The notes beneath the pieces are model-generated. The model made no database searches and had not been told where the DNA came from. It saw only the letters and a list, made by a program, of their open reading frames with translations. 64,000 nt of DNA from Deltaproteobacteria bacterium. Its GTDB lineage: Bacteria; Myxococcota_A; Polyangia; Fen-1088. Positions within the stretch are counted from its first letter, which is position 1, and every line of letters begins with the position of its first letter. Below are positions 12,239-31,123 of the stretch, piece by piece. The position numbers and the translations under genes were made by a program. Location of the stretch: NCBI GenBank assembly GCA_034439895.1, contig JAWXBF010000013.1, positions 1,888 through 65,887 on the forward strand, written 5' to 3'.

Positions 12239-12378
12239 GGGCGAGCAAGCCGCTACCGTTTATTACGGTGTGAATACCGCTCAACCGGTGACAGTGCGAA
12301 TTCTGCGCCTTGGCGCGGAATAAGGTGGCTAACCGAGGTCTGCTTTGGGTTAGTCTCGGGGCAGGGAACGGAGTGTTG

Positions 12379-13899
12379 ATGAAATTTCGGTCGCTATTGG
12401 TTAGTCCGGTGTTGTTCGCGCTGTTGTTTGCATGCTCGGACAGAGTGGCGCTCGACCTCCAGCCGAACGGAGGCACAGTCCCGACCGATTTTCCGAACGG
12501 GGGCGACATCGGCGTGATGGTTCCAGGACCTACCGGCGGAACCGGCGGCGGCGTGGTAGGCGGGACTGGCTCGGGTCCAACCGGTGGAACCAACGGCGGT
12601 GGTATCACCGTGGAACCAGGTTTTATAGATTTCGGTTTGGTCGCCGTGGGGTCTCAGATCTCGCGCTCGTTCACCATTCGCAATACAGGGTCCACGCCGC
12701 TCGCCCCGCTTGAGCTTCTATTTGGAGCCAATGCGACCCAATTCAGCCTAACAGACAATTGTGTCATCCCGCTCGCGCCTTACGTGTCGTGTGTGGTTTC
12801 GGTTTGGCTTACACCCACCGCTCCCGGCGTGGTGACTACAACGTTGACCGTGTCGTCGGCGACCGCGTCGTTTGTGGTGAAGCTATTCGGCTCCAGCGGC
12901 GGTCCGCCCTCGATCGCGTTGTCACCGAGCAGCCACGCGTTCGGAAACGTCGATCTGAATGCCACCAGCTTGCCGTCGTGGCAGTTCACCGTCACTGCGA
13001 CAGGAGGCACGCCCGGGACATATACCGGTGCTTTGTCGCTCACGATTCCAACCGGATTCAAGGTTGGGAAGGATACCTGTACAGGCCAGTCGCTTTCGCG
13101 TAACGGGGGTTCGTGCACGTTGCTTGTGCTGTCCGACGGCCGACCCGGGGTTTACAACGGTACGTTACGTGTGACGTCCGCCATGGGTGGTGAGGCGCTC
13201 GCTACGCTTACCATGTTCGCTTCGGGCGGTATGGTGACAGGCATGATCGGACACTGGCAGTTTGATGAAGGCTTCGGTACGGTCGTCAAGGACAGCTCGG
13301 TCAATGCGAATCACGGAACGGTTCGCCAGGGATCAACGTCGTCGGCCGCATTGCACCCCGCGCCGGTATGGGAAAGCGGCAAGAAGGGCCGTGCGCTGCG
13401 CATCGACGGGCTCGACGATTGGGTTAACGTTCCCGATTCGGATAGTATCGACAACACCGGTATCAACAATCAGGTTTCGATTTCCGCCTGGATCAAACTG
13501 GACCGGTACAACTCGCGCAGGCCGTACAACGTTGTGGCTCAGCGTCACATGGTTGGCACCCGTGTTGAGCAGTTCTTCATGGGTCTCAACAATGGCGCAC
13601 CGGCTGTTGGTATCAGCTTCTTCTATGGCATTGGTATAACCAACGTTCCGCTGAACGAGTGGGTGCACATGGCGATGACTTACGACGGCATCCAATAGTG
13701 CGGCTACATGAACGGCGTCGTGTTCGTCTGTCAGGACGTGGGCTGGCCTACCGCAACCGACAAAACGCCCTTCACCATGGGTGCTGGCATCGCCGTAGAA
13801 GATATCGACGAGCATATGGTTGGCCTCATCGACGAGGTCCGCCTGTACGACATCCAACTGTCGCCAGCGCAAATAGCCGGCTTGTACAACGCGCCCTAG
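12379..13899 (+). pseudogene. Lipoprotein with ASH/'choice-of-anchor' beta-sandwich and C-terminal LamG (concanavalin-like) domain, interrupted by an in-frame TAG at 13696-13698
   Basis: Lipobox LLFAC. Gly-rich linker. ...TYDGIQ*CGYMNGVVFV... then FTMGAGIAVEDIDEHMVGLIDEVRLYDIQLSPAQIAGLY fit the LamG consensus (TYDG..lrlYvNG....ftiGa...f.G.iDEvRiYnraLsaaEI). ORFs 12310..13698 and 13708..13899 are in the same frame, separated only by the TAG. Confidence 0.6.
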
Positions 13900-13921
13900 C
13901 CACGGCCGAATGCGATCTTGC

Positions 13922-13951
13922 GTGCAAACGGCGATCTGGCTGATGGGGCTT
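13922..13951. repeat. Direct repeat copy B (displaced degenerate copy of the mgtE 3' terminus)
   Basis: gtgcaAacggcgatctggCtgatggggctt, 23 nt after the LamG-gene stop. Matches 12206..12235. Confidence 0.7.
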
Positions 13952-14076
13952 CGATCTCCCGAAAGCACACAAAATCCATCTGTGTCACGCCGTGTTTAGC
14001 AGCCTCGGCCATTGCAATTCGAGTGGCCTCATCAACGGAAAGGCGGGTCACGGGGCTTTTTTCCTGGCTCGACACC

Positions 14077-14457
14077 TTATATCCGATGACCGCCGTCCAG
14101 CTTCCCCAACCGTTTATCAAACGTTCCGAGCGGAAGATGGCCAGCTTTCCGAGCCACCTCAAGAACTAGACAATCGGTGAACCCGAGGGAGGGGTGCTTT
14201 TTGAACGATTCGAGTGCGGACCCCACGACGTCGGCGTCCTGGAGTATCAGGTTTTTATGCAGCAATAGCATCTCGATTGCCCTGACAAGCTGAGTCGAGC
14301 TTAGGTCGTACACACTACTCAACACCCAGCCCGTCTCCTGTAGCACAAGGAGCGAAACCCAGGCGCCTCCTTTGATGAAGTCATCGGCCGCGGCAGACTG
14401 CTTTTCATCGTCCCTCGTGAGCAATCGGACGAGGACGTTGGTGTCAACGGCGCGCAT
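14077..14457 (-). CDS. vapC: PIN-domain toxin VapC
   Basis: MRAVDTNVLVRLLTRDD... is the N-terminal PIN acidic motif. 126 aa. Overlaps the upstream antitoxin by 14 nt. Confidence 0.8.
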   Translation of the reverse strand: MRAVDTNVLVRLLTRDDEKQSAAADDFIKGGAWVSLLVLQETGWVLSSVYDLSSTQLVRAIEMLLLHKNLILQDADVVGSALESFKKHPSLGFTDCLVLEVARKAGHLPLGTFDKRLGKLDGGHRI

Positions 14458-14704
14458 GTCGCTCCTTGATGTTGCGCTTGATCCCTTCCTTGAGTTCGGC
14501 GAGGGTCTTGGCCTTGGTGCCAGTCGGGAAGAGGGCTTTGTTTATTTCCTCCGAGCTGTACTGGCCCAACCGCCTCACCACGATCTTACCGTTCTCCTCG
14601 TCCCATTCGAGAACGGCGCCAGGGCCAACCCCAAGAATGCGCCGAACCTCGGCCGGAACGGAAATCTGACCTTGAGCAGTAACCTTCGATTTTGCAAGAG
14701 GCAT
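14444..14704 (-). CDS. vapB: AbrB/MazE/SpoVT-type antitoxin VapB
   Basis: MPLAKSKVTAQGQISVPAEVRRILGVGPGAVLEWDEENGKIVVRRL is a swapped-hairpin AbrB-like DNA-binding domain. Immediately 5' of vapC. Confidence 0.75.
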   Translation of the reverse strand: MPLAKSKVTAQGQISVPAEVRRILGVGPGAVLEWDEENGKIVVRRLGQYSSEEINKALFPTGTKAKTLAELKEGIKRNIKERHARR

Positions 14705-14996
14705 GGGACTACATTACCAGGGTAATGCGGAACGTGCAAACGGGCGGGTTCGACGGTAGCTTTTCGCCATGATTCTTTGTCCCCGGGCACAGTTCGAGTC
14801 CTGGTGGCGAGCGGGTGAACGATCAAGTCTATGTCCTTGCTCGCACAGTGGGGTATTGGCGCGCGCCTCCAAACCGAGCGCGATACAAAAGACGAAGCGG
14901 GGCTGAGCCTCCAACCCTCAGCGCTTGCCACCTGCCTGCTCTCCTTATGTCACGACGCAGATTTCGCACCGCGCCGCAAGCCCGCCGCCCGCCCAT

Positions 14997-15890
14997 TCAC
15001 GTCCCCGGAATCACGCGCTGAAACAACAGCGTCAACGCAAAACACCCCATCGCCATGAACGACAACGCCACCGTTCCACTGGCCGACAGAAACATCGCAT
15101 CCAGCAGGCTGATGCTGGCAATGAGCCATGGAACAGCAAAGCGCGGATTCGATTTGCGCTTACCAAGGCCAACCGCTGCCGCAACACCAATTGCGACTGC
15201 AACCGAGTACGCAAGGCTAACCGCCAGTCCCGCCAGCGAGATTTGCAACACGATTGCACCAAGCACAATCGGCACCAACATCAGCAACACTGGCCAGGTG
15301 CGACCCAGCGCGGCCTTGGTTTCGTGTTTCGCAATATAGGAAAGCCCGATCAAATGACAAAGCAACAGACCGGCCCCAATATACAGCAATGACTGGGGCG
15401 ACCCCGCTGTCCATCCCGCCGTGATGTAGACCGCCACGCGGCACAGTCCCATTAACAGCGGCGACAAAGCGTTCTTTTTGTGATGCAGATCGTAAGCCAG
15501 AATCAAACCCGTCAACGCGAGCGTCGCAAGGAAAGGGCGCCACGAAAAAAACATCCCAAGCCCCGACATCGTGCCCACAATCCCTACGCCCGCTGCCATC
15601 AAAACACCACCCAACACAAACACCGCCGTCGCCGAGATCAACCCCGCCGGAATCGGACGTTCCTTCCGGTGTTGAGCATCCCACCCCCGATCAAAGGCAT
15701 CGTTCAACACCATGCCGGCAACGTAAAGCAGCGACATCGCGATCGCCAGCGGAAGCAAAATTCGCAGATTAAGCGAGGCACCCGCAAGTGCAGCACCCGC
15801 AAATACGTTGGTCCACACCGTGGGCAGGTTTGAAACTCGCCCCAGTACCAGCACCGTTCGAAGGATCGATTGCGGCTTTGCGAGCGTCAT
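14997..15890 (-). CDS. UbiA-family aromatic prenyltransferase (EboC-like)
   Basis: Polytopic membrane protein. Asp-rich motif region LNDAFDRGWDAQHRKERPIPAGL (NDxxDxxxD-like). Start at MTLAKPQ, whose ATG overlaps the upstream stop as ATGA. Confidence 0.75.
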   Translation of the reverse strand: MTLAKPQSILRTVLVLGRVSNLPTVWTNVFAGAALAGASLNLRILLPLAIAMSLLYVAGMVLNDAFDRGWDAQHRKERPIPAGLISATAVFVLGGVLMAAGVGIVGTMSGLGMFFSWRPFLATLALTGLILAYDLHHKKNALSPLLMGLCRVAVYITAGWTAGSPQSLLYIGAGLLLCHLIGLSYIAKHETKAALGRTWPVLLMLVPIVLGAIVLQISLAGLAVSLAYSVAVAIGVAAAVGLGKRKSNPRFAVPWLIASISLLDAMFLSASGTVALSFMAMGCFALTLLFQRVIPGT

Positions 15891-17101
15891 CGTTGTTGTT
15901 CCACAACCCACTCCAGTTCGCGCGCGATCGCTTCGTCCACTGGCATGGCGCGGAGTTCGGCTGGCAACACGTCCCAGGTATAGGTCTCGACCTCAAGGTG
16001 TTGCGAAAGCGGTTCCCGATGGTGATGCGCCAGCAATTCGCGCACGAAATCGCCCGTGTTGTTGAACCCCGGACACAACCCCATCAAATTCGACTGAAAC
16101 AGAGGCACATGGAAATGAACTCGCCACCGTTCGTCACGCGGGCTCGGGTGTGCCGCCAGTGCTTCCGACAGATCCAGAAAACGTTGCAGACCACCCGCAG
16201 CATCCTGAATCACCGTTTGGTGTAGGTACACACCCTCCTCACCAAAACGTCGTAACACAGCAAGGCCTTCGGGCGAAGCCGGATAAAGCTCAAGGCCCGC
16301 CGTTATTTGCAATTTCAGGATCCGGACACCCGATTGGCGCACGCACGAAAGAATATCCGCGATCGACTCAAATTCGACTGCGGCGTGACAGGTATCCAGG
16401 CAGATACCGACGTGTCGCCGCAACGCAAGCTTTGCCTCGGCCAAAGATAGTCCCATTTGACCGGCCAGTGACTGCGCCGCTGCGTCTGAAAAAATCCACT
16501 CCGAAATGAAGTCGATCGCCTCGGCGTTGGTTTCCAGCAGACAATGCGGTTCAGGTTCAAGCGCGATTCCGATGATGGGTCCGCCCTCTTGGACGATTCC
16601 GACCAGGGTGGCAGCATGGCGGACGATGTTTTGCGCAATCGTCGCACGGACGCCCTCGCCATCGCGCAGGCGGAAACAACCAGGTACCGTGCTGATCGAG
16701 CCTTCAAGATCACCCGTTCTCGGCAGAAGGGCCGCCAGCAATCGCGCAAGTCTGTCGCTGTAGGTGACGCGTTCCTCCTCGGTCCAGTCCGGGCGGTAGA
16801 CCTGTTCCTTGACCGGTTGACCGTGAAAGGGGCCGTAGGGAAAGCCGTTGATCGTAAATACGTACATTCCCGACTCGGCGAGAAATTCGCGAAACGCCTG
16901 CAGCGTCGACGGTTCTTCCAGTTCAAGAGCCGCTTTTGCGGATAACCGCAATCCGATGCCGAAAGGGGCGTTCGGACTGACCCGCGCTTTCACGGAAACC
17001 GTGTGACGTTTCAGGTTGGCGAGGACCTCGGCCCAGCTTTCGCCCGGGTGGATGTTCGTGCAGTAGGTCAGATGACCCGCACGCGACCCCGCTTGCTTCA
17101 T
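15887..17101 (-). CDS. TIM-barrel sugar-phosphate isomerase/epimerase-like protein (EboE-like, xylose-isomerase-like fold)
   Basis: About 400 aa, HLTYCTNIHPGESWAEV... The size and the context between the DHQS-like and UbiA genes match EboE. Family assignment is by context and fold-level resemblance, not verified. ATGA overlap at both ends. Confidence 0.45.
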   Translation of the reverse strand: MKQAGSRAGHLTYCTNIHPGESWAEVLANLKRHTVSVKARVSPNAPFGIGLRLSAKAALELEEPSTLQAFREFLAESGMYVFTINGFPYGPFHGQPVKEQVYRPDWTEEERVTYSDRLARLLAALLPRTGDLEGSISTVPGCFRLRDGEGVRATIAQNIVRHAATLVGIVQEGGPIIGIALEPEPHCLLETNAEAIDFISEWIFSDAAAQSLAGQMGLSLAEAKLALRRHVGICLDTCHAAVEFESIADILSCVRQSGVRILKLQITAGLELYPASPEGLAVLRRFGEEGVYLHQTVIQDAAGGLQRFLDLSEALAAHPSPRDERWRVHFHVPLFQSNLMGLCPGFNNTGDFVRELLAHHHREPLSQHLEVETYTWDVLPAELRAMPVDEAIARELEWVVEQQR

Positions 17102-18345
17102 GCGCCAAGCGCCTCGCGCCGGGCGGAAGGCGCAACCGCGAGCTCCATTGCGCGATAGATCGCCTCGAAGCGTTCGACGGAAAGCGCGTGGACCTCGGTG
17201 CCCTTGCCGATGGCGGCCAGCATGGTGACGGTCAGATCTCCGCCCAGGTGCTCGCGGAAGTCCTCGATCCCAGCAAATACAGCGCGCTTGCCGTCAGGAC
17301 CTAACAACAACAGGGCTTCATGCCAGACGGGAAGTCCCAGCATACGCAACACGGCATCGATACGCACGGCGGCGGCCTCGGACAGTAGTCCAATCGCAGC
17401 CGAGTAACGACTGTCGGTGCCGATGCCAATGCCCACGGCCTCGCCGTGTCGCAATTCGTGGTGAGTCAACGATTCCAGCTTGTGAGCAGACCAATGTCCG
17501 AAATCCAGGGGCTTGGCACTGCCAAGCTCGAAAGGATCGCCGCCCTCTGCGATGTGTTGTAGATGCAGTTCGGCGCACCGTCGTACGAGATGTGCCACGG
17601 CTTCGGGTTGGCCGGTCGCGAGGGCGGGGGCGTTGCCCTCGATCCAGTCAAAAAACGCGGCATCCCGGATCAGGGCGACCTTGACTGCCTCGGCGTAGCC
17701 GGCGATTCGATCGCGTGCGGACAGCGTTGCCAGTAGATCAAAGTCGTTGATGACCGCAAAGGGTGGAAAAAATGTTCCGAGGTAATTCTTGGCGCCAAAG
17801 GCATTGACCCCGTTTTTGACCCCGACACCGGAATCGTTCTGGGACAGCACCGTGGTCGGCATGCGAACGGTGCGGACGCCGCGATGAATGGCTGCGGCTG
17901 CGTATCCAACCGCGTCGAGTACCGCGCCCCCACCCACGATCACCACGAACGACTGCCGATCGATTCGGTGCTCGAAAAAGGTGGTGTGCAACTTTGCGAG
18001 CAAGGTCGGATCGTTTTTGCAGGCTTCGCCGCCCGGAAACGACAGGGGAGCCGTGACCAGTTCGAGACGATCGGCGTGGGAACGGAAGTAGTTCTCGATG
18101 GCGCCCGTCAAATCCGGGTTCAGTTCAAGGACGCCGGCATCCACGATCACGATCGCGCGATGTCGGCGCTTTGGCTCAAGCGCCGTCAAGGTACGGACCA
18201 GCGACGGATTCGCGGGATCAAACGCGCCGCGCGTAAAACACACGTCGTAGCCGAAGGGCACCGCGAACTGCTGGCGGAGCGTGCCGGTCGAGTCCATTCG
18301 TTCATAGATAACATGTGACAGCCTGGGAGCCTTCGTCCCGAACAA
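17098..18345 (-). CDS. 3-dehydroquinate-synthase-like sugar phosphate cyclase (EboD-like)
   Basis: DHQS-family motifs VIVGGGAVLDAVGYAAA, GVRTVRMPTTVLSQNDSGVGVKNGVN and metal-binding H..E....H region. 415 aa. Confidence 0.7.
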   Translation of the reverse strand: MFGTKAPRLSHVIYERMDSTGTLRQQFAVPFGYDVCFTRGAFDPANPSLVRTLTALEPKRRHRAIVIVDAGVLELNPDLTGAIENYFRSHADRLELVTAPLSFPGGEACKNDPTLLAKLHTTFFEHRIDRQSFVVIVGGGAVLDAVGYAAAAIHRGVRTVRMPTTVLSQNDSGVGVKNGVNAFGAKNYLGTFFPPFAVINDFDLLATLSARDRIAGYAEAVKVALIRDAAFFDWIEGNAPALATGQPEAVAHLVRRCAELHLQHIAEGGDPFELGSAKPLDFGHWSAHKLESLTHHELRHGEAVGIGIGTDSRYSAAIGLLSEAAAVRIDAVLRMLGLPVWHEALLLLGPDGKRAVFAGIEDFREHLGGDLTVTMLAAIGKGTEVHALSVERFEAIYRAMELAVAPSARREALGA

Positions 18346-18371
18346 CCTTTTCTTCCGATCGCCGATAACCG

Positions 18372-20843
18372 TTGGTGCACTTGCCTATTTTCGTGGGTTC
18401 CCTGGCGTTTGGAATGGCGCTGGGTCTGATTTTGCCCCGCGAAGCCTTCCCGTGGACCGTGGGTGGCGTTAGCCTGGTTGCGATCGCCTTTGCCGCAAAG
18501 CGCTACGGGTTCATTGCGGGCATCCTGGTGCTCGTTTCTGGCGGTCTGTATGGGTCGATGCGTGCGACGGCGCACATCGACGGTCCGATTGGCGCAGCAC
18601 TCGCGATTGCGAGGACAGTACACGGGATGGGGCATGTCGATCTGGTGGAGTTGCGCGACGGACGTGGCCCGCGTCTCGTGTTGTCGTCCATTGCCTTTTC
18701 CGGGAAAGCCAGGGCCGGTTGGGATGAGCGGATCGAATTGTTCGTATCACACGGCACGACCTCCCTTTTGCCGGGCGACTGGGTTGCCTTTCAAGCGTTG
18801 CTCGAGGGTCCCCGTGGTTTCGCGAATCCGGGCGCAACCGACGGACGATTGAGCGCTGCCACCCGGGGCATTGTGGCGCGCGGCCATGTGAGTGCCACGG
18901 GGGAGCTTCGGATGGTGGCGCCGGGATCGTCGTGGGGTCCGCGCCGGCTCGCCCATCAGGCTCGGCAAGCCATGCGCAGACAACTCGAGCGTGCGCTCTC
19001 GGCCCAGGTCGCACTCTTTCTACGCACGGCCGTGTTGGGCGAACGTGCGGCCTCGGGAGCGGATGTCGAGGCCGGCTTCAAGGCCGCCGGGGCGACGCAC
19101 GCGCTGTCGGTCTCGGGACTGCACCTCGCTGCCGTTGCCGCAGTGTTGTTTTTGCTCGTGCGACGATTGTTTGGTTTGTCGACCCGCCTGAGCCTGCGCG
19201 CCAGTCCATCGTTGCTCGCAGCGCTTCTGTGCATACCCGCAGTCGTTTTTTATACGCTCGTAACCGGCGAAGCGATTGCCACCTGGCGATCGGCGCTGAT
19301 GGCGTCGGTCGTTTTCGGCGCACTGGTCGTCAATCGAAAATTCTCGCTCGCACACGGCGTTGCGATGGCGGCCCTGTTGGTGCTGATCGATTCACCGTTG
19401 TGGCTGATCGATCCGTCGTTTCAACTGTCCTTCGTTTCGGTTATTGCGCTTGGTCTGTTCTCCCGGGCGTTTGCCCCGCAAGAAGCGGTCGACGGTTCTG
19501 GACGCGGGTTGTGGTACGCGTCGCGTCGGTGGTTGTTGAGCGCGCTCGGGGCAACCACAGCCGCGGGGCTTTGCACGACACCTCTTGTCGCCCACCACTT
19601 CGGCGAGATAACGCCGGCTGCGTTCCTCGGCAACCTCGTTTTGACTCCCCAGGTCGAGCTGCTCATCGTTCCGCTCGGACTCTTTGGCGCCGTGCTTGCG
19701 CTCATCCATCCGATCCTCGGCTGGCTGCCGTTGTCACTGGCCGAATACGCGACGCGACTCGCCCTCGTCACCGCAGAGGCCTTCGCAAACCACGCCCCCA
19801 TCTGGCGTTGTCGCTATCCCAATCCCCTCGAAACGGCCTGTCTTACGCTCGGCGTGGCTTGCGCGTTGATGGCGTTTCGCAGCGTCCGTCAAGGCGCCGA
19901 ACCCCGACGGATCCGTCGCTGGATCAAGGTATCCGCGGTGTGGCTCGCAGGTGCGATCCTGTCGCTCTCGTATCGCGAGTTGTCTCGCAGGCTTTCGAAC
20001 GAGGTCGAGATCACCTTCATCGACGTGGGGCAAGGGGATGCGGCGCTGGTGATTGGGCCCCGCGGATTCGTGATGTTGGTGGATGGCGGCGGATTACCAG
20101 GCTCTGATTACGATGTGGGCAAACGGATCGTCGAACCGCTGTTGCGGCGCAAGGGCATCGCCAAAATCGATCTTGCGGTGCTGTCCCACGCGCATCCGGA
20201 CCACATGTTGGGCCTGATGCACGTTTTCGACCGATTCGAGATCACCACCCTCTGGGCGGCCGTTGCACCTGGCGAAAGTGAGCTCTTCGATGCGATGGTC
20301 AAACGCGGTCGAGAAAGAGGCACGCAAATGCCCATTCCGCTGCCGTTGTCTCGCGACGGGCTTGCCCTCGAACCGCTTGGACCCATGCTCTCCTCACCCG
20401 ATGGCCAGGGCGGATGGCGCGACACGATTGGCCGTCCCGAGGGCCTTGGCGCCAACGACGCATCCCTGAGTGTTCGGCTGTCGTTTGCGGGTCGCAGTGT
20501 TTTGTTTGCGGGCGACGTCGAGGCTGCGGGTGAAACCGAACTGTGCGGGCGTGATCGCGCGGGACTTTTCGGAAACGTCGGATTGCATGCGGACCTGCTG
20601 AAAGTGCCGCACCACGGAAGCCGGACGTCGTCATCGGCGGAGTTTCTTGATGCCGTGGCGCCGTCCATCGCGATCATTTCCGATGGCGTCAACAATCGCT
20701 TCGGATTTCCCCACGCCGAAGTTCTCGAGCGATACCAGGCGCGGCCGATCCGGTTGTTGCGAACCGATCAGTCGGGCGCAATCACGATTCGGATCGAGCC
20801 GTCTGGAAAAATCGACGCAACCTGCGTACTCGGATGTCGATAA
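18372..20843 (+). CDS. comEC: DNA internalization competence protein ComEC/Rec2 with C-terminal metallo-beta-lactamase domain
   Basis: N-terminal polytopic competence domain. C-terminal MBL (TFIDVGQGDAALV...LSHAHPDHMLGL...HHGSRTSSS...AIISDG). Confidence 0.85.
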   Translation: MVHLPIFVGSLAFGMALGLILPREAFPWTVGGVSLVAIAFAAKRYGFIAGILVLVSGGLYGSMRATAHIDGPIGAALAIARTVHGMGHVDLVELRDGRGPRLVLSSIAFSGKARAGWDERIELFVSHGTTSLLPGDWVAFQALLEGPRGFANPGATDGRLSAATRGIVARGHVSATGELRMVAPGSSWGPRRLAHQARQAMRRQLERALSAQVALFLRTAVLGERAASGADVEAGFKAAGATHALSVSGLHLAAVAAVLFLLVRRLFGLSTRLSLRASPSLLAALLCIPAVVFYTLVTGEAIATWRSALMASVVFGALVVNRKFSLAHGVAMAALLVLIDSPLWLIDPSFQLSFVSVIALGLFSRAFAPQEAVDGSGRGLWYASRRWLLSALGATTAAGLCTTPLVAHHFGEITPAAFLGNLVLTPQVELLIVPLGLFGAVLALIHPILGWLPLSLAEYATRLALVTAEAFANHAPIWRCRYPNPLETACLTLGVACALMAFRSVRQGAEPRRIRRWIKVSAVWLAGAILSLSYRELSRRLSNEVEITFIDVGQGDAALVIGPRGFVMLVDGGGLPGSDYDVGKRIVEPLLRRKGIAKIDLAVLSHAHPDHMLGLMHVFDRFEITTLWAAVAPGESELFDAMVKRGRERGTQMPIPLPLSRDGLALEPLGPMLSSPDGQGGWRDTIGRPEGLGANDASLSVRLSFAGRSVLFAGDVEAAGETELCGRDRAGLFGNVGLHADLLKVPHHGSRTSSSAEFLDAVAPSIAIISDGVNNRFGFPHAEVLERYQARPIRLLRTDQSGAITIRIEPSGKIDATCVLGCR

Positions 20844-20849
20844 CGACGC

Positions 20850-21929
20850 ATGACCCTATTTCGCGCGTTACTGATCCTGGTTTGCTCGGCCCACGTTGCT
20901 GGTTGTTCCCGTACACAACGGCCGCTGCACCCCCGGTCGATCGAATTTCAACGCCGCGGCGCCGAGGCACTTGCCCAGTCCGAATTTGATCGCGCAGCGG
21001 GTCTATTTTCCCTGGCGCTTGAATACGAACCTCGACTGCCCGAGGCTCACAACGGACTTGGATTGGTGGCACGAACGCGCGGGGATACGTTGTTGGCGGA
21101 AACGCTTTTTCGCCGCGCGCTCGCGATCAACCCGAACTTTGCCGAAGCCCACGTGAACCTCGGATGGATTCAATTTGAACGGCACAATCTTCCACTGGCC
21201 GCCCAACATTTCTCCCAGGCCCTCGCAATCGATCCGGGTTTTCCCGTGGCCAGGTTGGGCGCGGGGCAGACCGAACTCAGTCGAGGCCGACTCGAGACGG
21301 CGCACTGGCATCTTCGAAAACTCGTTGAGGTAAAACCGCGCGATGCGCACGGACATGGCGCATTGGCGCTTGTGCTCGCACGTCTGGGTCGGCCTGCCGA
21401 TGCGGAAGCGGAAGCACAAAGGGCGCTCGATCTTGAATCTGAAAATGCACTGGCGCACCGCGCGCGCGGCGAGATATTGATGGCAGGAGGACACGCGGAG
21501 GCCGCTGCGGAAGCCTTTCACAGAGCCTTGCATACCGATCCATCGGATGTCGATGCGCGACTGGGTCTTGCGACGGTCTTGATTGAAAAGGGTGATTTCA
21601 GTGCGGCCGCGGGTGAGCTTGAGCGGGCGCACGAATCCGCCCCCGAACGCGTCGAGGTGGCCTTCGTGCGTGCGTACCTTGAACTGCGACACAACAATCC
21701 GATGGGTGCGGAAAAAGCCGCGCGAGAAGCGCTACAAATGAACGCAGATTTTGTCGCCGCGCAGTTGATCCTGGCCGAGGCGCTATTGCGTCAGTCACGC
21801 AAAGTCGAAGGCCGCTCGACCCTGGTCGCATTCATCCGGTCCGCGCCGAATACCATGGAAAGGCAACGCGCCGCCGCCCAATCCTTGCTCGACGCGATGG
21901 ATCGGGGCGACAACGTGTACGGACGCTAG
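20850..21929 (+). CDS. TPR-repeat lipoprotein
   Basis: Signal/lipobox LILVCSAHVAGC. About eight TPR units (AHNGLGLV..., AEAHVNLGWI..., ALAHRARGEIL...). Confidence 0.6.
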   Translation: MTLFRALLILVCSAHVAGCSRTQRPLHPRSIEFQRRGAEALAQSEFDRAAGLFSLALEYEPRLPEAHNGLGLVARTRGDTLLAETLFRRALAINPNFAEAHVNLGWIQFERHNLPLAAQHFSQALAIDPGFPVARLGAGQTELSRGRLETAHWHLRKLVEVKPRDAHGHGALALVLARLGRPADAEAEAQRALDLESENALAHRARGEILMAGGHAEAAAEAFHRALHTDPSDVDARLGLATVLIEKGDFSAAAGELERAHESAPERVEVAFVRAYLELRHNNPMGAEKAAREALQMNADFVAAQLILAEALLRQSRKVEGRSTLVAFIRSAPNTMERQRAAAQSLLDAMDRGDNVYGR

Positions 21930-22480
21930 TTGCCGTGTCGTTTGGTGGGTACCGCGCCGATTCCCAGGCAACCGCCACACAACGGGATGCAGTTCGAGCG
22001 AAAGTCGCGGGTCACCCGCCATGAAGAACCACAGGCGACGCAGTTGAGGTTGCTGGTATTGGGGCGACCCACCGATGCCACGTCGAGGTTGTTCAAGGTT
22101 TCACGCGTCACCATGCCGACCAGAAATTGCCCCGTCACGACGGGCAAACAATCGACGGCGTTTTCGTCCATGATTCCTTCGGCTTCATCCACCGTGGTTT
22201 CGGGCGAGATACACAATACGGGCGAGCTCATGCAATCGGACACCATCGTGCCTGAACGCGCCGAGTGCAGGTCGCGATCGCAAACGATTCCGGTCAAACC
22301 ACCGTCGTCCACAACCAGAAAGAAGTTTACCTTCTTGTTGTCGGCAAGCCGAAGGGCGGCCGCGACGCCGGTGTCCGGTGTAACCGTAAAAAGATGCGTT
22401 CCCATCACTTCCGCAACCGAGCGGGACTCCGCGTCTTCCGCATTCGATTCCGATCGGCTCACCTTGCGATTGCTCGACAT
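21926..22480 (-). CDS. CBS-pair domain protein with C-terminal CxxC...CxxC zinc-ribbon-like tail
   Basis: Two CBS motifs (HLFTVTPDTGVAAALRL..., VSDCMSSPVLCISPETTVDEAEGIM). C-terminal NCVACGSSW...CIPLCGGC. Start at MSSNRK. Confidence 0.6.
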   Translation of the reverse strand: MSSNRKVSRSESNAEDAESRSVAEVMGTHLFTVTPDTGVAAALRLADNKKVNFFLVVDDGGLTGIVCDRDLHSARSGTMVSDCMSSPVLCISPETTVDEAEGIMDENAVDCLPVVTGQFLVGMVTRETLNNLDVASVGRPNTSNLNCVACGSSWRVTRDFRSNCIPLCGGCLGIGAVPTKRHGN

Positions 22481-22726
22481 GGTCTGCTCCTTTGGATTGG
22501 ACGCCCGGGTTGCGACGCCCACCCAATGAATCGCCCGAAAACCTGCGTCGCTTGGGGGTTGGATGCTTCAAGTCCCGTGCCAGATTCACGATCGTTGTGA
22601 TTACAGGTGGTTGGGCTATGCCGCGGCGAGCGGATCACCCGGAGATCTGACACGACTGTCAGGGTTTGCCCCCAAACTGTTGCGATCACATCTGCGACTT
22701 TTGCCCACCTACCGGCAAGGCAATGT

Positions 22727-24679
22727 TCAGTAGTCGATCGACAATTCGAGACCGACGGTGTGTTTCTCGAAGTTTTTGTCATCGAACGCGAATTCAACTG
22801 TGCTGCCGTTGTGCACGTAGTCATAGCGAAGGCCAAGGTCAACGTAGTCGCCTACCGGGTAGGCGAAGCTGACGGCCGTGGCAAATCGATTGTCTTTTCG
22901 GCGCAAGCGCATTTCGGTGCTGCGACCAAACGGGCCCGAGACTCGCAACACATTGTCGCCCTGGTAAGCAATCCTCTCGAAACTGAGTTCGACGGACAGA
23001 CGCAATTGCCCCCACGGCGTCGTCGTTCCGCTGATCGTTGCTGCATTCGAATGGTACGAATACGGCACGGTGTAAATGCCGGTCAGATTCTGTCGAACCG
23101 CTCCCAGATCAAGTTCGCGCGTGCCGATGTTTTCTCGCCGCGAACGCAATGAAACGTTTGCCCTTGCGCTTCGATAGCGGAACCGTTGTGTCAGCCGCAG
23201 GTCGCGTCGGGTACCTTCGTACAGGTCAAAGTCCGGATCCAGGGCGTTTTTTCTCGCCATTCGTAGTTCAAGCCAGGTGCTGGTGAAATGTCCTTCTTCC
23301 AGTCCAATCGACGGCATCAGCGAGAACACCGAAAGGAAGGGTGCAAAGGTTTCGATGCCCGCGATCTGGTATTCGCCCGACAGACCCAATCCTGCGTGAA
23401 ACGCGCCCGTTACGGTTTCGCTCAACAACGATGCATTGTGGACCTGCAAGCTAAAGTCATCCGCATCGGGATTCGAATACGCGATCTGATCGAGGGCGTA
23501 GCTTCCTTGCAAGGAAAACGCATCACGCCATTTGTGGGTGTAAACGGCTTCGGCGCTGGTCGTGAAGAAAAAGCTTTCCTTGTCGCCGTATTCCGCGTTG
23601 ACAACGTCGCTGCGCAGACCTCCCATAAGCAACACGTTCGAATCGTACCCGGATCCCGCCTGCGCCTGTAGCACCAACCCCGTGTTCTGCGCGGACAATC
23701 CCCATCCCAGCGCGGCTCGATAGGTTTGTGCCAGCGCTGCCGTTTCAGGGTCGATCTTCAAGTTCAAGGCGCGATCGAGATGGATTCGGGCTTCGTCGGC
23801 GCGATCGAGTCGGTAGTTCGCCATGGCGGCCTGATAGTGAAAGTCGGGATCATCTTCTGACAGCAACGCCGCTCGATTCAGGTGAAACCGTGCCACCTCG
23901 AAATTCCGCTGTCGGTAGTAGATCAATCCCAGCGCGAATTCGAGTTCGGCGCGATCGACAGCGGTGGCGCCGCGGGCTTCGGCCTCGGCAAGAGCCTTCT
24001 GGTAGAGCGCGATCGCCTCATGGGTTTTGCCTTCCCGGGTGGCCCGACTTCCGCCGTCGAGCGCGGCATCGATGTGGGTTTTCAATTCCAGCGTCGCTGC
24101 TTCGTCGATGTCCTGTTGCAATTCTTCGACATCTTCTTTGAACGCGTCCCGGTCGGGGGCTTGTTGCACCTCGGCCAGATGTTGTTTTGCCCGCGGGATC
24201 GTTTGTGCGTCGAAAGCGGCCTGTCCGGCATTGAGCAACGCAAGCGTCGAAAGCTCCGGCGCAAACTTGGCTGCCATCACAAAGGCCTGTTCGGCATCGA
24301 CATAGCGCTCAAGGGCGTAGTAGGTGGCCGCTTCGTTGAAGAACAACGACCCTTTGGAAGGCGGGTTCTGGGACTGCTTGGCCGCCGCAAAGGCTCGCAA
24401 CGCCTCTTCGTATCGTGTGGCACGAAAGCGCGCCATACCCAGTACGAAAAGAGCAGCGCCGTCGCCAGGCCGTGCGTCCAACATTGCGATGGCGCGGAAC
24501 GCCGCCCCATCGAAATCACCCGCTTTCATCAACCTTCGCGCACCGTCGAGCGGATCAAGCGCCGCTTGCCGGGTGGTGTCTTCCTGCGCCGAAGTGGGGA
24601 CTTGCGACCAAGCGCTGTCAGGCCCAACGAGAGCTAGCACGATCGCGAGCGTCAGGGATGGGCCCCGGGTTCGACTCAT
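22727..24679 (-). CDS. Outer-membrane protein: N-terminal TPR domain plus C-terminal beta-barrel (PgaA/BcsC/Slam-like architecture)
   Basis: Signal peptide LTLAIVLALVGPDSAWS. About 330 aa of TPR repeats. About 320 aa of alternating-hydrophobic beta-strand pattern ending in the aromatic residue ...LELSIDY*. Last gene of the ECF-sigma operon. Confidence 0.55.
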   Translation of the reverse strand: MSRTRGPSLTLAIVLALVGPDSAWSQVPTSAQEDTTRQAALDPLDGARRLMKAGDFDGAAFRAIAMLDARPGDGAALFVLGMARFRATRYEEALRAFAAAKQSQNPPSKGSLFFNEAATYYALERYVDAEQAFVMAAKFAPELSTLALLNAGQAAFDAQTIPRAKQHLAEVQQAPDRDAFKEDVEELQQDIDEAATLELKTHIDAALDGGSRATREGKTHEAIALYQKALAEAEARGATAVDRAELEFALGLIYYRQRNFEVARFHLNRAALLSEDDPDFHYQAAMANYRLDRADEARIHLDRALNLKIDPETAALAQTYRAALGWGLSAQNTGLVLQAQAGSGYDSNVLLMGGLRSDVVNAEYGDKESFFFTTSAEAVYTHKWRDAFSLQGSYALDQIAYSNPDADDFSLQVHNASLLSETVTGAFHAGLGLSGEYQIAGIETFAPFLSVFSLMPSIGLEEGHFTSTWLELRMARKNALDPDFDLYEGTRRDLRLTQRFRYRSARANVSLRSRRENIGTRELDLGAVRQNLTGIYTVPYSYHSNAATISGTTTPWGQLRLSVELSFERIAYQGDNVLRVSGPFGRSTEMRLRRKDNRFATAVSFAYPVGDYVDLGLRYDYVHNGSTVEFAFDDKNFEKHTVGLELSIDY

Positions 24680-25143
24680 TGCGCTCGTCGGGGCGAGGCG
24701 ATTCGATTGGCTCTGATTTCGCGCACGCGATCGCGAAGCCGTTGCCGTCGTTCGCGGACACGCGAAGGATCTCGCCGTTGCGATCGCAACTCTGCCCGGC
24801 GCTCACTTGCAGCAGGCTCCGCTCCGCCCAACTGGACCTTCTCGATCGGGAGTGGCTTTTCCGCGTTGTCGAATCGGGGTGTCGCGGGATCGGCCTTTTG
24901 CTGCCGACGTTCGGCTCGAATCCGGCTAATCACATCTTCGAAGGCTTCGCCGTCGTCAACCAGCGTTACGGTCGTACGACCCGCTCGTACCCGCCGTCGC
25001 TCTTGCCGCTCCTCCCGTCGAGCTTCGCGTTTTTCCAGGCGCTCGTCTATGGGCGATGGTTGTTTATCATCGGCAAGCGCAACACCCATTGGTCCGAAGC
25101 TCAGCATCGCAAGGGTTACCACTGTCATCGTGGAACGTTTCAT
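24676..25143 (-). CDS. Secreted Arg/Glu-rich low-complexity protein
   Basis: Signal peptide MKRSTMTVVTLAMLSFGPMGVALA. Mature part dominated by RRE/ERR runs. 4-nt overlaps with both neighbours. Confidence 0.5.
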   Translation of the reverse strand: MKRSTMTVVTLAMLSFGPMGVALADDKQPSPIDERLEKREARREERQERRRVRAGRTTVTLVDDGEAFEDVISRIRAERRQQKADPATPRFDNAEKPLPIEKVQLGGAEPAASERRAELRSQRRDPSRVRERRQRLRDRVREIRANRIASPRRAQ

Positions 25144-25790
25144 GATGCACCTTCCACCTGAAGCAAGATCTCCTGTTCGATCACCTGATCCGCGATCTCG
25201 GCCCGCGCCTTGACGCGATAAAGTCCTGGCTTTTCACCCCGCACGGCAACCGGTAATACGTTTTCACCGGCCTCAAGGGTACCGGGCCAACGAAAGCGCC
25301 GTTCGGCCATCGCTTCCCCCTTGCTAGAGAACGACAACCCTTCGGGCAGATCTACCTCGAACGTGACGTCTTCGACGCGGACTTCGGCGGTGAAGTTCAG
25401 GTGGATGACCGCGGTTCGCGACGAGGGCACGCTGTGGGCGAGGGCAGGGGCTGGTGCGATCTCTGCGATTTTCGGCATCGCCACGGTTGTCGTTGTCGTC
25501 CCGGTCGTCGCCATTTCGGCGGGCGGGTGCTGCATCGCCATCAAAAACGCAAACGTTGCCGCTCCGGTTGCGACGCCAACCGCAGGCCAGCCGAGCGCCG
25601 GATGTTCAGCAAACCACTGGCGTGCACGCTCGAACCAACCTTGCGGCTCCGGCGGTCCCGCTGCCACCAGTGTGCGATGCAGTCCCATCCGGAAATCGCG
25701 CCCGGGCAGGTCCTCAACGTGCGCCCGCAGCGCGCGCAGACGACGGCTGATATCCGCGTCGTCGTTGTGATTCAGATCGTTGGGATTCAT
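25140..25790 (-). CDS. Anti-sigma factor (single-pass membrane protein)
   Basis: Located directly 3' of the ECF sigma with ATGA overlap. N-terminal cytoplasmic helix region. One TM helix (PALGWPAVGVATGAATFAFLMA). Periplasmic C-terminal domain. Confidence 0.55.
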   Translation of the reverse strand: MNPNDLNHNDDADISRRLRALRAHVEDLPGRDFRMGLHRTLVAAGPPEPQGWFERARQWFAEHPALGWPAVGVATGAATFAFLMAMQHPPAEMATTGTTTTTVAMPKIAEIAPAPALAHSVPSSRTAVIHLNFTAEVRVEDVTFEVDLPEGLSFSSKGEAMAERRFRWPGTLEAGENVLPVAVRGEKPGLYRVKARAEIADQVIEQEILLQVEGAS

Positions 25791-26419
25791 CGGGTGCCTC
25801 TCGGTGCCAGGGGGGCTTCGTTGGGTTGGACGAGCTCGGATCGGTCAAGGTTCCGCTCGGACCCCAACAATCGACGCAGGTGTTCACGGGCTCGGTTTAG
25901 CCGGGACTTGACGGTCCCCAGCGCAACCTTTTCGATGGCCGCGATCTCGTCGTGGGACATCCCTTCGATATCGAACATGACGATGGTGCCTCGAAACTCG
26001 GGGGGCAATTGTTCGATGGCGCCCCACACCCGACGTCGTTCCTGTTCCTGTTCCAGACGGTGATCGGGCTGATTGGGCCCGTGGCCATCCAGATCAACCT
26101 GATCGTGCGTCCCAACCGTATAACTTTCTTCGACCGCGCGATTCCGGTGCGCACGGCTTTTCATTTCATCCAGAAATACGTTTCGAACGATCGCATAAAG
26201 CCAGGTCGAGAAGGCCGACGCAAAACGATAACTATTGATGGACTTGTACACCTTGATGATGGCGTCCTGAGCCAGATCGTCGGCCGCTGCGTCATCTTGT
26301 GCAAATGCGCGGGCGAAACGGCGGACTCGATCCAGGTGTTGGCCGATCAACGTCTCGAAAGCCCCCACATCGCCGCCCTGCGCCCTGGCAATAAGGTTGC
26401 GCTGAACATCGAGATCCAT
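25787..26419 (-). CDS. ECF (sigma-24 family) RNA polymerase sigma factor
   Basis: Region 2 (DDLAQDAIIKVYKSINSYRFASAFSTWLYAIVRN). Region 4 HTH (GMSHDEIAAIEKVALGTVKSRLNRAREHLR). Start taken at MDLDVQ; the 25787..26485 ORF extends further 5'. Confidence 0.85.
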   Translation of the reverse strand: MDLDVQRNLIARAQGGDVGAFETLIGQHLDRVRRFARAFAQDDAAADDLAQDAIIKVYKSINSYRFASAFSTWLYAIVRNVFLDEMKSRAHRNRAVEESYTVGTHDQVDLDGHGPNQPDHRLEQEQERRRVWGAIEQLPPEFRGTIVMFDIEGMSHDEIAAIEKVALGTVKSRLNRAREHLRRLLGSERNLDRSELVQPNEAPLAPRGTR

Positions 26420-26665
26420 CGATGTGTTGGGCGCGACCAGCTGGGCTTCATTTTCGTTCATGTTGATGAAGGTGGCCTCTGCCATGACATCGTTAGACGA
26501 CAGGCGGATGTTAAAGGTTCCCGGCGCAAGTCATTGAAAAAAGACGAGAAAATAAGTTTCTTTCGGGAACGTCGGGCCGCGGGATTCCGTCCTACGGACA
26601 GAACGAAACCAATCCGGTGCGAACGCAAAGCGTCCCCGGGGAACCCAACTGAGGAGAACGACACC

Positions 26666-29857: not shown

Positions 29858-31123
29858 GTGCTTTCCCGTCTTTCCGCCACCATCCTGGAGCACGGATTGC
29901 TTCAAAAGGGCGACCGTGTACTGGTGGGGTTATCCGGAGGACCCGATTCCTGGGCGCTTTTGCTAGGACTCCAAAAGCTCTCCGGTCGATTGCAGATCGC
30001 CATCGAGGCGGTTTGTGTGGACCATGGCCTTCGCTCTGAATCCGCGGCCGAGGCGAAGGCCGTTTCGGAGCAGTGCAAGTTGCGCGGGATTGTCTGTCAT
30101 ACGATTGGGCTGAAAGGGCTGAAGGGGCGGACCGGAACGGTGTCGATGGATGCCGCCCGGACAGCCCGGCTAGATGCCCTTCAAAAACTGGCACGGCGAC
30201 GAAAATGCAATCGCATCGCGCTCGGACACCACGCCGACGATCAGGCAGAGACCGTGTTGTTCCGAATCGTGCGGGGCACTGGAATTGCGGGGCTTTCCGG
30301 GATTCCGTATCAGCGCGACGCGTTCATTCGGCCCTTGCTGGACGTGCGGCGTTCCGAAATCGAAAAGTTTGTTCGCAAGCACGGCGTCGTGCCGATGCAA
30401 GATCCCAGCAACGCGAACCCTCGTTACGCACGAGCCCGAATCCGGCACACTTTGTTGCCGCTCTTGAGACAAGAAAACCCTCGCGTGGTCGATGCTCTTA
30501 TCGAACTTGCTCGACAGACGCGAAACGCGGAGCGCCCGGCAGCGTCCGCGGGATTGAACTTGCCGCGTGAGGCGGCACGCACCTTCGAAAAACTCCTGCG
30601 ATACAAAGGCGGCACCCAGGGCGTCGATGTTCCGGGAGGGCGCGTTGAAATTCGCTACGGGCAGTCGTCCTTTGTGCCGAGCCGAAAAAGTGTTGATCCG
30701 GTGGCCGTGCCGGGTAAGCCCCAGCGAATCACCAGCTCGGGCACCTACGAGGCTTCCAACCACACCCGGCTGCGCATTCGACTGGCAACCCGCACGCGAC
30801 CATCCGAGAAGGCGATCGCCTTTGACCCCCAACAGATTCTTTTGCCTCTCGTGTTGCGAACGCGCCAGCCCGGCGATCGCATGCGGCCAAGGGGCGGCGC
30901 GGGAAGCCGAAAACTTCAAGATTTGATGGTCGACGCCCGAATTCCACGACCTGAGCGTCCGAACTGGCCCGTCCTGACCGACGCAAACGGCACAATTCTC
31001 TTTATTCCGGGCTGTCGTCCGGCCGAATCCGGAAGGCCGAATGAGTCGACGCAACGTTGGCTGGTGGTGGAAATCGCAGGTGAAAAGGGGTCGCTTCGCC
31101 GGCCTGTGGAAAAAGGTTCGTGA
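29858..31123 (+). CDS. tilS: tRNA(Ile)-lysidine synthetase TilS
   Basis: PP-loop VLVGLSGGPDSWALL. ...IALGHHADDQAETVLFRIVRGTG. GTG start. Conserved position upstream of ftsH. Confidence 0.85.
   Translation: MLSRLSATILEHGLLQKGDRVLVGLSGGPDSWALLLGLQKLSGRLQIAIEAVCVDHGLRSESAAEAKAVSEQCKLRGIVCHTIGLKGLKGRTGTVSMDAARTARLDALQKLARRRKCNRIALGHHADDQAETVLFRIVRGTGIAGLSGIPYQRDAFIRPLLDVRRSEIEKFVRKHGVVPMQDPSNANPRYARARIRHTLLPLLRQENPRVVDALIELARQTRNAERPAASAGLNLPREAARTFEKLLRYKGGTQGVDVPGGRVEIRYGQSSFVPSRKSVDPVAVPGKPQRITSSGTYEASNHTRLRIRLATRTRPSEKAIAFDPQQILLPLVLRTRQPGDRMRPRGGAGSRKLQDLMVDARIPRPERPNWPVLTDANGTILFIPGCRPAESGRPNESTQRWLVVEIAGEKGSLRRPVEKGS

Follow-up and report, generated by a model that had tools for sequence, protein, structure and literature searches.

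Three genes on the minus strand of the window, by which the whole 64-kb stretch of DNA analysed here is meant, form a compact cassette. Its features, in the direction of transcription, are as follows.

17098-18345, minus strand: eboD, encoding a 3-dehydroquinate synthase (DHQS)-like sugar-phosphate cyclase of 415 aa from TTG 18345 (NCBI MDZ4693715.1)
17098-17101, minus strand: ATGA, in which the eboD stop overlaps the eboE start, read from the sequence
15887-17101, minus strand: eboE, encoding an EboE-family protein of 404 aa, a putative xylose-isomerase-like TIM barrel (MDZ4693714.1)
15887-15890, minus strand: ATGA, in which the eboE stop overlaps the eboC start, read from the sequence
14997-15890, minus strand: eboC, encoding a UbiA-family membrane prenyltransferase of 297 aa from ATG (MDZ4693713.1)

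An alternative start of eboD at ATG 18297, used by NCBI and by some gene callers, gives a protein of 399 aa, and the longest open reading frame of eboC starts at GTG 15911. The first-pass annotation had described a minus-strand trio coupled by ATGA overlaps, and both overlaps were read at 17101-17098 and 15890-15887. The identical D-E-C block, overlaps included, was present in at least nine independent metagenome contigs and is therefore no assembly artefact. The possibility that D-E-C is a decaying remnant was also considered, and was ruled out by intact open reading frames in at least nine contigs and by omega values of 0.05-0.12.

The product of the first gene scored 553 bits against NCBIfam NF004852 (PRK06203; cutoff 333), compared with 541 bits for EboD of the six-gene cluster L012, and contains the Pfam domains DHQ_synthase and DHQS_C. 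The motifs GGGxxxD, PTT...K.G.N, ExxK, HxxxH and HGEAV are legible in its sequence, and omega against locus L011 was 0.054. Consistent with its proposed identity as EboD and not AroB, it was 54-58% identical to the EboD proteins of six-gene ebo clusters and scored 202 bits against the aroB model TIGR01357, under the cutoff of 305. Judged by these comparisons of sequence, the first gene is an EboD-type DHQS-like cyclase; that NCBI still names it 3-dehydroquinate synthase is a weakness of the annotation. The only solved relatives of EboD belong to the DHQS superfamily (DHQS, EEVS/ValA 4P53, DDGS 5TPR and DOIS 2D2X), with which it shares its fold family and its NAD+/metal motifs. These solved sugar-phosphate cyclases are much more remote from the window EboD (79-149 bits) than is the EboD model (553 bits), and the best match to a solved DHQS among PDB sequences reached 149 bits only. 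According to one published account (PMC12904256), EboD is an inosose synthase whose substrate is mannose 6-phosphate, unlike that of other sugar-phosphate cyclases of the superfamily.

The product of the second gene matched NCBIfam NF035939 (TIM_EboE) with 422 bits, above the curated cutoff of 250, over profile positions 1-378 of 379, and its match to Pfam AP_endonuc_2 was sub-threshold only. The EboE alignment (35 sequences) contained 64 invariant columns, and omega was 0.084. Searches of PDB sequences with the 35-sequence profile or with the single sequence yielded no match to EboE, and an AlphaFold2 single-sequence model (mean pLDDT 45, pTM 0.36) was too poor for use. The profile match identifies the predicted TIM-barrel protein as EboE, as the first-pass annotation had called it and as its NCBI name, 'metabolite traffic protein EboE', also states.

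The product of the third gene matched Pfam UbiA with 52 bits. Its NDxxDxxxD motif (residues 63-71), Y56 and R151 were kept in at least 97% of 120 homologues, and omega was 0.116. Scores were below the cutoffs of the quinone, haem and ChlG prenyltransferase models (32 bits against 275 for TIGR01474, 27 against 210 for CyoE/CtaB TIGR01473, and 29-37 against 313-436 for ChlG). The curated profile did not assign the protein to EboC: it reached 92 bits against the NCBIfam EboC model NF035940, under its cutoff of 250, but its gene is coupled to eboE, and it is 45-50% identical to the UbiA proteins encoded directly 3' of eboE in FABDEC, DECAB and DEC-F'B'A' clusters. UbiA proteins from within six-gene ebo clusters of the clade were also below the NF035940 cutoff, at 92-105 bits. 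Because these bona fide cluster members fail the cutoff too, NF035940 is too narrow for the clade, and the NCBIfam EboC model overlooks the whole FABDEC/DEC-type clade. The window UbiA is accordingly classed, on identity and gene position, as an orthologue of EboC from six-gene ebo clusters.

The cassette lies between a conserved left flank and a zone in which it differs from unsplit relatives, as listed below.

31210-33123: FtsH, further left-flank anchor (tblastn, 78.5% identity to L012 FtsH)
29858-31123: TilS, further left-flank anchor (tblastn, 49% identity to L012 TilS)
21926-22522, minus strand: CBS-domain gene, second left-flank anchor (tblastn, 55% identity to L012 CBS)
18372-20843, plus strand: comEC, left-flank synteny anchor (Pfam DUF4131, Competence and Lactamase_B)
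18346-18371: divergent intergenic gap between eboD and comEC, 26 bp, or 74 bp with the eboD start at 18297
12239-14996: breakpoint and insertion zone from eboC to the convergent mgtE; eboF-eboB-eboA sits here in unsplit relatives
14444-14704, minus strand: MazE-type antitoxin, within the breakpoint zone
14077-14457, minus strand: PIN toxin, within the breakpoint zone
12379-13899, plus strand: Laminin_G_3 gene with an in-frame stop, within the breakpoint zone

The reported position of the cassette beside comEC and a toxin-antitoxin (TA) patch was accurate, with comEC divergent at 18372-20843 and the MazE/PIN pair at 14704-14077. The gap between eboD and comEC is presumed to be a shared promoter region. 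A consensus promoter scan of this gap (18346-18371) gave nothing above chance, and in promoter and terminator consensus scans of 13900-18800 sites were no commoner than in shuffled sequence. As had also been claimed, eboA, eboB and eboF are absent from the window: tblastn with queries from four reference clusters found no homologue or remnant in the 64 kb. A search for a remnant of an FMN-dehydrogenase gene in the window returned tblastn noise only, and no aro, ubi or men genes were found near the cassette. The breakpoint zone varies between relatives. In L101, mgtE follows eboC after 2 nt, and in L011 the TA module is a different one and there are three Laminin_G_3 paralogues.

Unsplit counterparts of the locus were found in other genomes. 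In L012 and L013 the FtsH-TilS-CBS-comEC left flank is as in the window, comEC is likewise divergent from eboD-eboE-eboC, and the block is followed by a convergent eboF-eboB-eboA and then by sigma70-methyltransferase-PSD. In L018, from a GTDB Myxococcales metagenome-assembled genome (MAG), F'B'A' comes directly after eboC and the right flank is the same as in L012 and L013. Among the matches listed from a GTDB genome scan with the EboE alignment, which do not include the window's own MAG, 54 of 80 loci kept D-E-C together as a block and eight of the 80 showed the full DEC-F'B'A' pattern. D-E-C is the usual sub-block in clusters of the FABDEC, DECABF and DEC-F'B'A' types, and in convergent clusters D-E-C and A-B-F are separate transcription units. 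Four unrelated GTDB genomes among the listed matches (L052, L073, L084 and L090) had D-E-C without eboA, eboB or eboF in the roughly 9 kb to each side of it. These four genomes are JAICQL01 (Polyangiaceae), CAMYKZ01 (Afifella), CAZSNL01 (Hyphomicrobiales) and JBGOSW01 (Binatia). The gene order D-E-C has been described before, as have ebo genes that are split up or scattered, and in the ebo literature physical clustering is not obligatory: the genes count towards the system wherever in the genome they lie (PMC5133447, section 3.2).

The search for eboA, eboB and eboF beyond the window, which the first-pass annotation had proposed, found them as MDZ4695594-96, which share the organism label and accession block of the window proteins. 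A homologue search with L012 EboB listed matches of 74-78% identity, among them P0229, which led to locus L098. In the EboF homologue database, clustered at 90% identity, the L098 EboF cluster includes NCBI MDZ4695596.1 from "Deltaproteobacteria bacterium", so that the EboF of the window organism lies within L098 EboF's own cluster; the other relatives of L098 EboF in this database are at most 69% identical. The contig of MDZ4695596.1 reads PSD-MT-sigma70-EboA-EboB-EboF-orf417 (accessions MDZ4695592-98), where orf417 (tag SGI86_10650) is a clade-specific 417-aa gene translationally coupled to eboF. The three ebo genes of this second locus are as follows.

Second locus, other contig: eboA, EboA domain (MDZ4695594)
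Second locus, other contig: eboB, TatD family (MDZ4695595)
Second locus, other contig: eboF, alkaline phosphatase family (MDZ4695596)

Several observations connect the two loci. The window proteins are MDZ4693702-29 (eboC, eboE and eboD being MDZ4693713-15) and carry the same organism label as the A-B-F proteins. The window accessions precede the A-B-F locus by 1,884, a distance smaller than the approximately 2,130 genes preceding SGI86_10650, and by this locus-tag arithmetic both loci fall within one assembly. The exact EboF protein was present in ERZ27246977, ERZ505514, 3300032456, SRR6448205 and 3300020219, all five of which also hold the exact EboE and EboC of the window. In ERZ505514 the two contigs were covered to similar depth, D-E-C at 4.47x and A-B-F at 5.50x. 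The tetranucleotide correlation of the window was 0.97 with the A-B-F locus L184, 0.96 with the window's 87-94% relative and 0.81 with L012. From accessions, label, co-occurrence, coverage and composition, and bearing in mind that MAG binning can err, we infer that eboA, eboB and eboF very probably lie at a second locus of the same genome.

The two-locus layout is conserved in three lineages of the clade. L011 (D-E-C only) and L192 (A-B-F only) both come from JGI 3300081833, and L101 (E-C, then mgtE) and L099 (A-B-F only) both come from JGI 3300017788. Synonymous divergence was alike between the two loci, pair by pair (dS 0.60-0.77 versus 0.49-0.69, and 1.3-1.6 versus 1.4-1.8). Omega was 0.03-0.23 across all six ebo genes, indicating purifying selection.

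Collectively, these data make it highly likely that a complete six-gene ebo system was split into two loci by rearrangement in this clade and that the cassette is its eboD-eboE-eboC sub-operon. The first-pass annotation had proposed a stripped-down ebo cassette; its naming of EboD, EboE and EboC stands, while its minimal or variant pathway does not, as D-E-C is a normal sub-block and eboA, eboB and eboF are at the second locus. In the proposed history, the ancestral layout of these uncultured "Deltaproteobacteria"/Myxococcota-like bacteria would have been comEC beside eboD-eboE-eboC, a convergent eboF-eboB-eboA, and then sigma70-methyltransferase-PSD. A chromosomal rearrangement would have cut between the convergent genes eboC and eboF, after which the D-E-C arm remained with comEC, as in the window, and the A-B-F arm with sigma70-methyltransferase-PSD on the other contig.

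It is very unlikely that D-E-C acts as a stand-alone pathway to a prenylated cyclitol-derived lipid, for instance a prenylated hydroxybenzene formed by dehydration of the EboD product, without eboA, eboB and eboF. The translational coupling of the trio, its persistence as a block, its transcription apart from A-B-F in convergent clusters and the four GTDB loci with D-E-C only would all agree with such a pathway. Against it, an intact A-B-F arm is under purifying selection alongside D-E-C in all three lineages of the clade, no examined genome was shown to be without eboA, eboB and eboF altogether, and deletion of eboB or eboF in Stieleria abolishes the product (bioRxiv 10.64898/2026.05.21.724671). 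A related interpretation, which we regard as unlikely, is that the clean break between D-E-C and A-B-F, maintained under selection in three lineages, reflects functional modularity, with D-E-C sufficient on its own to make a cyclitol-derived head group and prenylate it, and with A-B-F as a tailoring or export module under separate regulation. The D-E-C-only loci of the four unrelated GTDB genomes fit this interpretation. Under the same interpretation, a sigma-70 gene precedes A-B-F, which is fused at the level of transcription to the clade-specific, membrane-anchored 417-aa protein. If it were true, the product of the clade would differ from thallusin.

All data are metagenomic and batch-submitted MAGs have adjacent accession blocks, which would allow the D-E-C and A-B-F contigs to come from different co-occurring relatives, the window genome then being truly without eboA, eboB and eboF. 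This origin is highly improbable: complementary halves would have to be paired in three separate lineages and sample sets, with matching dS ladders, a tetranucleotide correlation of 0.97 and similar coverage; their flanks would have to match exactly those on the two sides of the unsplit cluster; and the locus-tag arithmetic places both loci in one assembly. Database names suggest instead a role in primary metabolism, with the DHQS-like gene as the shikimate aroB (MDZ4693715.1 is '3-dehydroquinate synthase' at NCBI) and the UbiA as a quinone or haem prenyltransferase (JGI names its relatives '4-hydroxybenzoate polyprenyltransferase'). That assignment is almost certainly wrong, given the sub-cutoff scores (TIGR01357 202/305, TIGR01474 32/275, CyoE 27/210), the 149 bits of the best solved DHQS, the tight coupling of the DHQS-like gene to eboE, the presence of its orthologues inside ebo clusters and the lack of aro, ubi or men genes nearby.

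For the split six-gene system, substrates and product can be proposed by analogy with other organisms. EboE, EboB, EboF and EboA would convert a cyclitol and L-aspartate into a hydroxylated quinoline-carboxylate, which the membrane enzyme EboC would farnesylate and may also cyclise, giving a saccharoquinoline/thallusin-type meroterpenoid. For thallusin, eboB, eboC, eboE and eboF were each required, EboC farnesylates trihydroxyquinaldate, and aspartate is incorporated into the product; the link between ebo and thallusin rests on one 2026 preprint (bioRxiv 10.64898/2026.05.21.724671).

The closest known systems are the FABDEC, DECABF and DEC-FBA ebo clusters of Pseudomonadota, Myxococcota and others, which have the same six families, the D-E-C sub-block and stop/start overlaps. 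Their proteins are 45-58% identical to those of the window, and unsplit Myxococcales-type clusters have both flanks in common with the split loci. Unlike in these clusters, the six genes of the window organism are not one operon: the arms lie at separate loci, with the A-B-F arm on another contig, a TA pair and a surface-protein gene stand in place of A-B-F, and in the window clade orf417 is coupled to eboF. In Planctomycetota, for example the thallusin producer Stieleria maiorica, ebo genes are scattered, and in Arenibacter and Adhaeribacter the operons are partly split; these genes are functional though not fully clustered (PMC5133447, section 3.2). Compared with such arrangements, the split in the window organism is clean, with two three-gene sub-operons and eboA retained. 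The EDB ("edible") cluster of Pseudomonas fluorescens NZI7 is a Pseudomonadota-type ebo variant whose eboD and eboC homologues are needed for the phenotype (PMC12904256); likened to the window by description only, it differs in being one contiguous cluster with three extra genes.

The locus is an ordinary new member of the known ebo system. A three-gene ebo-like locus in a single window or contig is no ground for postulating a minimal pathway, as the partner arm can sit elsewhere in the genome, and cluster definitions like that of the thallusin preprint (bioRxiv 10.64898/2026.05.21.724671), with a minimum of four genes at one location, would overlook both halves. Two stable sub-operons, D-E-C and A-B-F, make up the ebo system and are separable without loss of selection on either, a view useful for the design of heterologous expression and for genome-mining rules.

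The eboD, eboE and eboC genes of the window are followed on the same strand by a toxin-antitoxin (TA) pair:

18345-17098, minus strand: eboD, DHQS-like cyclase, 415 aa from TTG 18345 (longest ORF)
17101-15887, minus strand: eboE, TIM-barrel protein, 404 aa
15890-14997, minus strand: eboC, UbiA-family protein, 297 aa
14704-14077, minus strand: MazE-type antitoxin and PIN toxin, downstream of eboC

As described in the first-pass annotation, the three genes are coupled ORFs: their coordinates and a reading of the sequence placed ATGA stop/start overlaps at both junctions (17101-17098 and 15890-15887), and the cassette was found divergent from comEC (start at 18372) and beside the TA pair. This tight coupling suggests stoichiometric co-production of the three proteins. 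Identical D-E-C blocks were recovered from metagenomes on nine or more independent contigs. The start of eboD is ambiguous, since NCBI, like some gene callers, starts the gene at ATG 18297 (399 aa) rather than TTG 18345; the gap to comEC is therefore 26-74 bp, from just 26 bp between the longest-ORF starts (18346-18371) to 74 bp with the NCBI start. Either at least one start has probably been called too far 5', or coding sequence contains the promoters. The D-E-C promoter presumably sits in this very short divergent region common to comEC, in which consensus promoter scans detected nothing above chance.

Profile searches, together with a calibration for EboC, upheld the proposed identities of all three proteins. 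The eboD product contained both DHQS Pfam domains and reached 553 bits with the NCBIfam model NF004852 (cutoff 333) and 202 bits on the aroB model TIGR01357, below its cutoff of 305; a complete six-gene ebo cluster likewise contains a DHQS-like gene for which NF004852 was the top-scoring model, at 541 bits. Its closest solved structures were DHQS, EEVS, DDGS and DOIS (79-149 bits). EboE matched NF035939 (TIM_EboE) at 422 bits (cutoff 250) over nearly the entire profile, and neither sequence nor profile searches detected a solved relative. The eboC product scored 52 bits on Pfam UbiA, 92 bits on the NCBIfam EboC model NF035940 (cutoff 250) and 97 bits on the SCO3242 family (cutoff 260). As a calibration, four UbiA proteins from genuine six-gene clusters, each encoded immediately downstream of eboE (P0008, P0067, P0064 and P0010), were scored on the EboC model and fell in the same range of 92-105 bits. 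The window protein thus resembles the EboCs of six-gene clusters, though it lies under the cutoff; since these score equally low, the weak score reflects the clade and a narrow model, and by this comparison it is no evidence against EboC identity. Every tested EboC from FABDEC- or DEC-type clusters reached merely 92-105 bits, and PGAP consequently gives these proteins generic UbiA prenyltransferase names; Ebo labels already exist in NCBI for two of the six proteins.

The window UbiA retains an NDxxDxxxD motif (residues 63-71), together with Tyr56 and Arg151, both of them conserved in ≥97% of the 120 homologues compared. For the EboC homologue UbiA-297, a Tyr-56 in the substrate pocket and a conserved Arg have been reported (PMC9235831); equivalence of these residues is only suggested.

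In agreement with the first-pass annotation, the 64-kb window contained neither homologues nor remnants of eboA, eboB and eboF. The annotation's reading of a minimal, stripped-down pathway did not hold at genome level, where the A-B-F arm very probably occupies a second locus (MDZ4695592-98). In the related contigs L012 and L013, whose UbiA is 50% identical to that of the window, the order is FtsH-TilS-CBS-comEC, divergent eboD-E-C, convergent eboF-B-A, then sigma70-methyltransferase (MT)-PSD; L012 and the window's contig derive from one metagenome. The window shares the FtsH, TilS, CBS and comEC flank, and L018, a GTDB Myxococcales MAG, shares the right flank. These common flanks indicate that the joined convergent cluster is ancestral for the group. 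Relative to L012, ~7 kb has been inserted in the window between TilS and the CBS gene (22727-26500), where an ECF sigma factor, a TPR protein of 650 aa and two small ORFs are encoded. A second ECF sigma factor, paired with FecR, is found at 43172-44931.

An EboB match (P0229) led to contig L098, which reads PSD-MT-sigma70-eboA-eboB-eboF with no D-E-C beyond, and has a tetranucleotide correlation of 0.96 with the window. Its EboF shares a 90%-identity cluster with MDZ4695596.1 (alkaline phosphatase family, [Deltaproteobacteria bacterium]). That exact protein was found on ten contigs, all with the order PSD-MT-sigma70-eboA-eboB-eboF-orf417 followed by PPO-UROD, including one of 144 kb (ERZ27246977) and others from ERZ505514, 3300032456, SRR6448205 and 3300020219; the exact EboE and EboC of the window were present in all five samples. 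One of these contigs, L184, showed a tetranucleotide correlation of 0.97 with the window, and coverage in ERZ505514 was 4.47x and 5.50x for the contigs of the two arms. The window proteins (MDZ4693702-29) bear the same organism label as the A-B-F arm and precede orf417 (SGI86_10650) by 1,884 accessions. Because the locus tag implies some 2,130 preceding genes, more than this distance, we infer from accession and locus-tag arithmetic that both loci belong to one assembly.

Two sister lineages showed the same division. The 87-94% relative (JGI 3300081833) carries D-E-C alone on L011 and A-B-F alone on L192; the 78% relative (JGI 3300017788) has E-C on L101 and A-B-F alone on L099. Synonymous divergence was alike at both loci within each lineage pair (0.60-0.77 versus 0.49-0.69; 1.3-1.6 versus 1.4-1.8). 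We conclude that a rearrangement split the ebo cluster between eboC and eboF before the three lineages diverged. None of the six ebo genes is decaying: omega between the window and L011 was 0.054 for eboD, 0.084 for eboE and 0.116 for eboC, comparable with comEC (0.115) and mgtE (0.034), and between L184 and L192 it was 0.225 for eboA, 0.031 for eboB and 0.049 for eboF.

The former breakpoint has become a hotspot for insertions. On L101, mgtE follows eboC by 2 nt and the junction is empty (L101:2297-2299). The convergent eboC/mgtE junction of the window (12239-14996) holds the MazE/PIN pair and one Laminin_G_3 gene, and that of L011 (10895-18250) a PemK-type TA system, a VOC-like gene, three Laminin_G_3 paralogues and a DUF6242 gene. 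The window Laminin_G_3/ASH-domain surface-protein gene (12379-13899, plus strand) is interrupted by a TAG codon in frame (13696-13698); the homology with the L011 paralogues extends beyond it to 13896, and callers split the gene into 439 aa and 63 aa. Recovery of this TAG in several independent assemblies rules out sequencing error, leaving a true pseudogene or read-through of the stop as the explanations.

Among the matches listed, 80 GTDB loci, retrieved with the EboE alignment, were classified by gene order. D-E-C was contiguous in 54; 12 had the full FABDEC pattern, mostly in Burkholderiales, and 8 the full DEC|F'B'A' pattern, with the second arm convergent. This convergent arrangement, whole or truncated at a contig end, occurred in Myxococcales, Polyangiaceae, Haliangiales and Rokuibacteriota, and DECAB(F) forms in Alphaproteobacteria. 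UbiA homologues of 45-50% identity lay in FMN_dh-F-A-B-D-E-C (L007, L008, L014) or D-E-C-A-B (L009) clusters; locus L039 carries E-C only. Yurchenko et al. 2016 (PMC5133447, section 3.2) had previously catalogued the FABDEC, DECABF and DEC|F'B'A' orders, which makes D-E-C a normal order in this ebo branch. The same paper describes operons that are physically split, as well as ebo genes that are not clustered in Planctomycetes. The window locus is thus part of the known ebo system, in a split arrangement of an already described kind. An FMN-dependent dehydrogenase gene (PF01070) lies directly 5' of eboF in L007 (3190-4308), L008 (3227-4351), L014 (3208-4323), L071 and L079; it could be an accessory oxidoreductase of the FABDEC cluster type, and is absent from the window.

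Outside the window, orf417 (L184:11398-12651, plus strand; 417 aa) has an ATGA overlap with the eboF stop and also occurs on L098, L192 and L182-L191. It is annotated in NCBI as hypothetical protein SGI86_10650 (MDZ4695597.1), with a hydrophobic N-terminal segment and no Pfam match, and is conserved in this clade only, where its copies are 76-89% identical and evolve under purifying selection (omega 0.07-0.09). It may represent a seventh, clade-specific gene of the A-B-F arm. Four unrelated loci (L052, L073, L084 and L090, from Polyangiaceae, Afifella, Hyphomicrobiales and Binatia) carry D-E-C with no eboA, eboB or eboF within ~9 kb on either side. These loci and the eboF-coupled orf417 point towards D-E-C and A-B-F as functionally separable modules, a reading we hold to be quite improbable.

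A 2026 preprint without peer review (10.64898/2026.05.21.724671) reports that ebo genes co-occur with production of thallusin, an algal morphogen, in 35 tested strains from four phyla, none of them Myxococcota, plus cyanobacteria; that the quinoline core incorporates L-aspartate; and that EboC farnesylates 6,7,8-trihydroxyquinaldate. The EboC of the present clade is <50% identical to the assayed EboCs. On this literature, the second locus would supply the remaining tailoring genes, and the window D-E-C genes would most likely account for the cyclase reaction, prenylation and one undefined tailoring reaction in a thallusin-type pathway.
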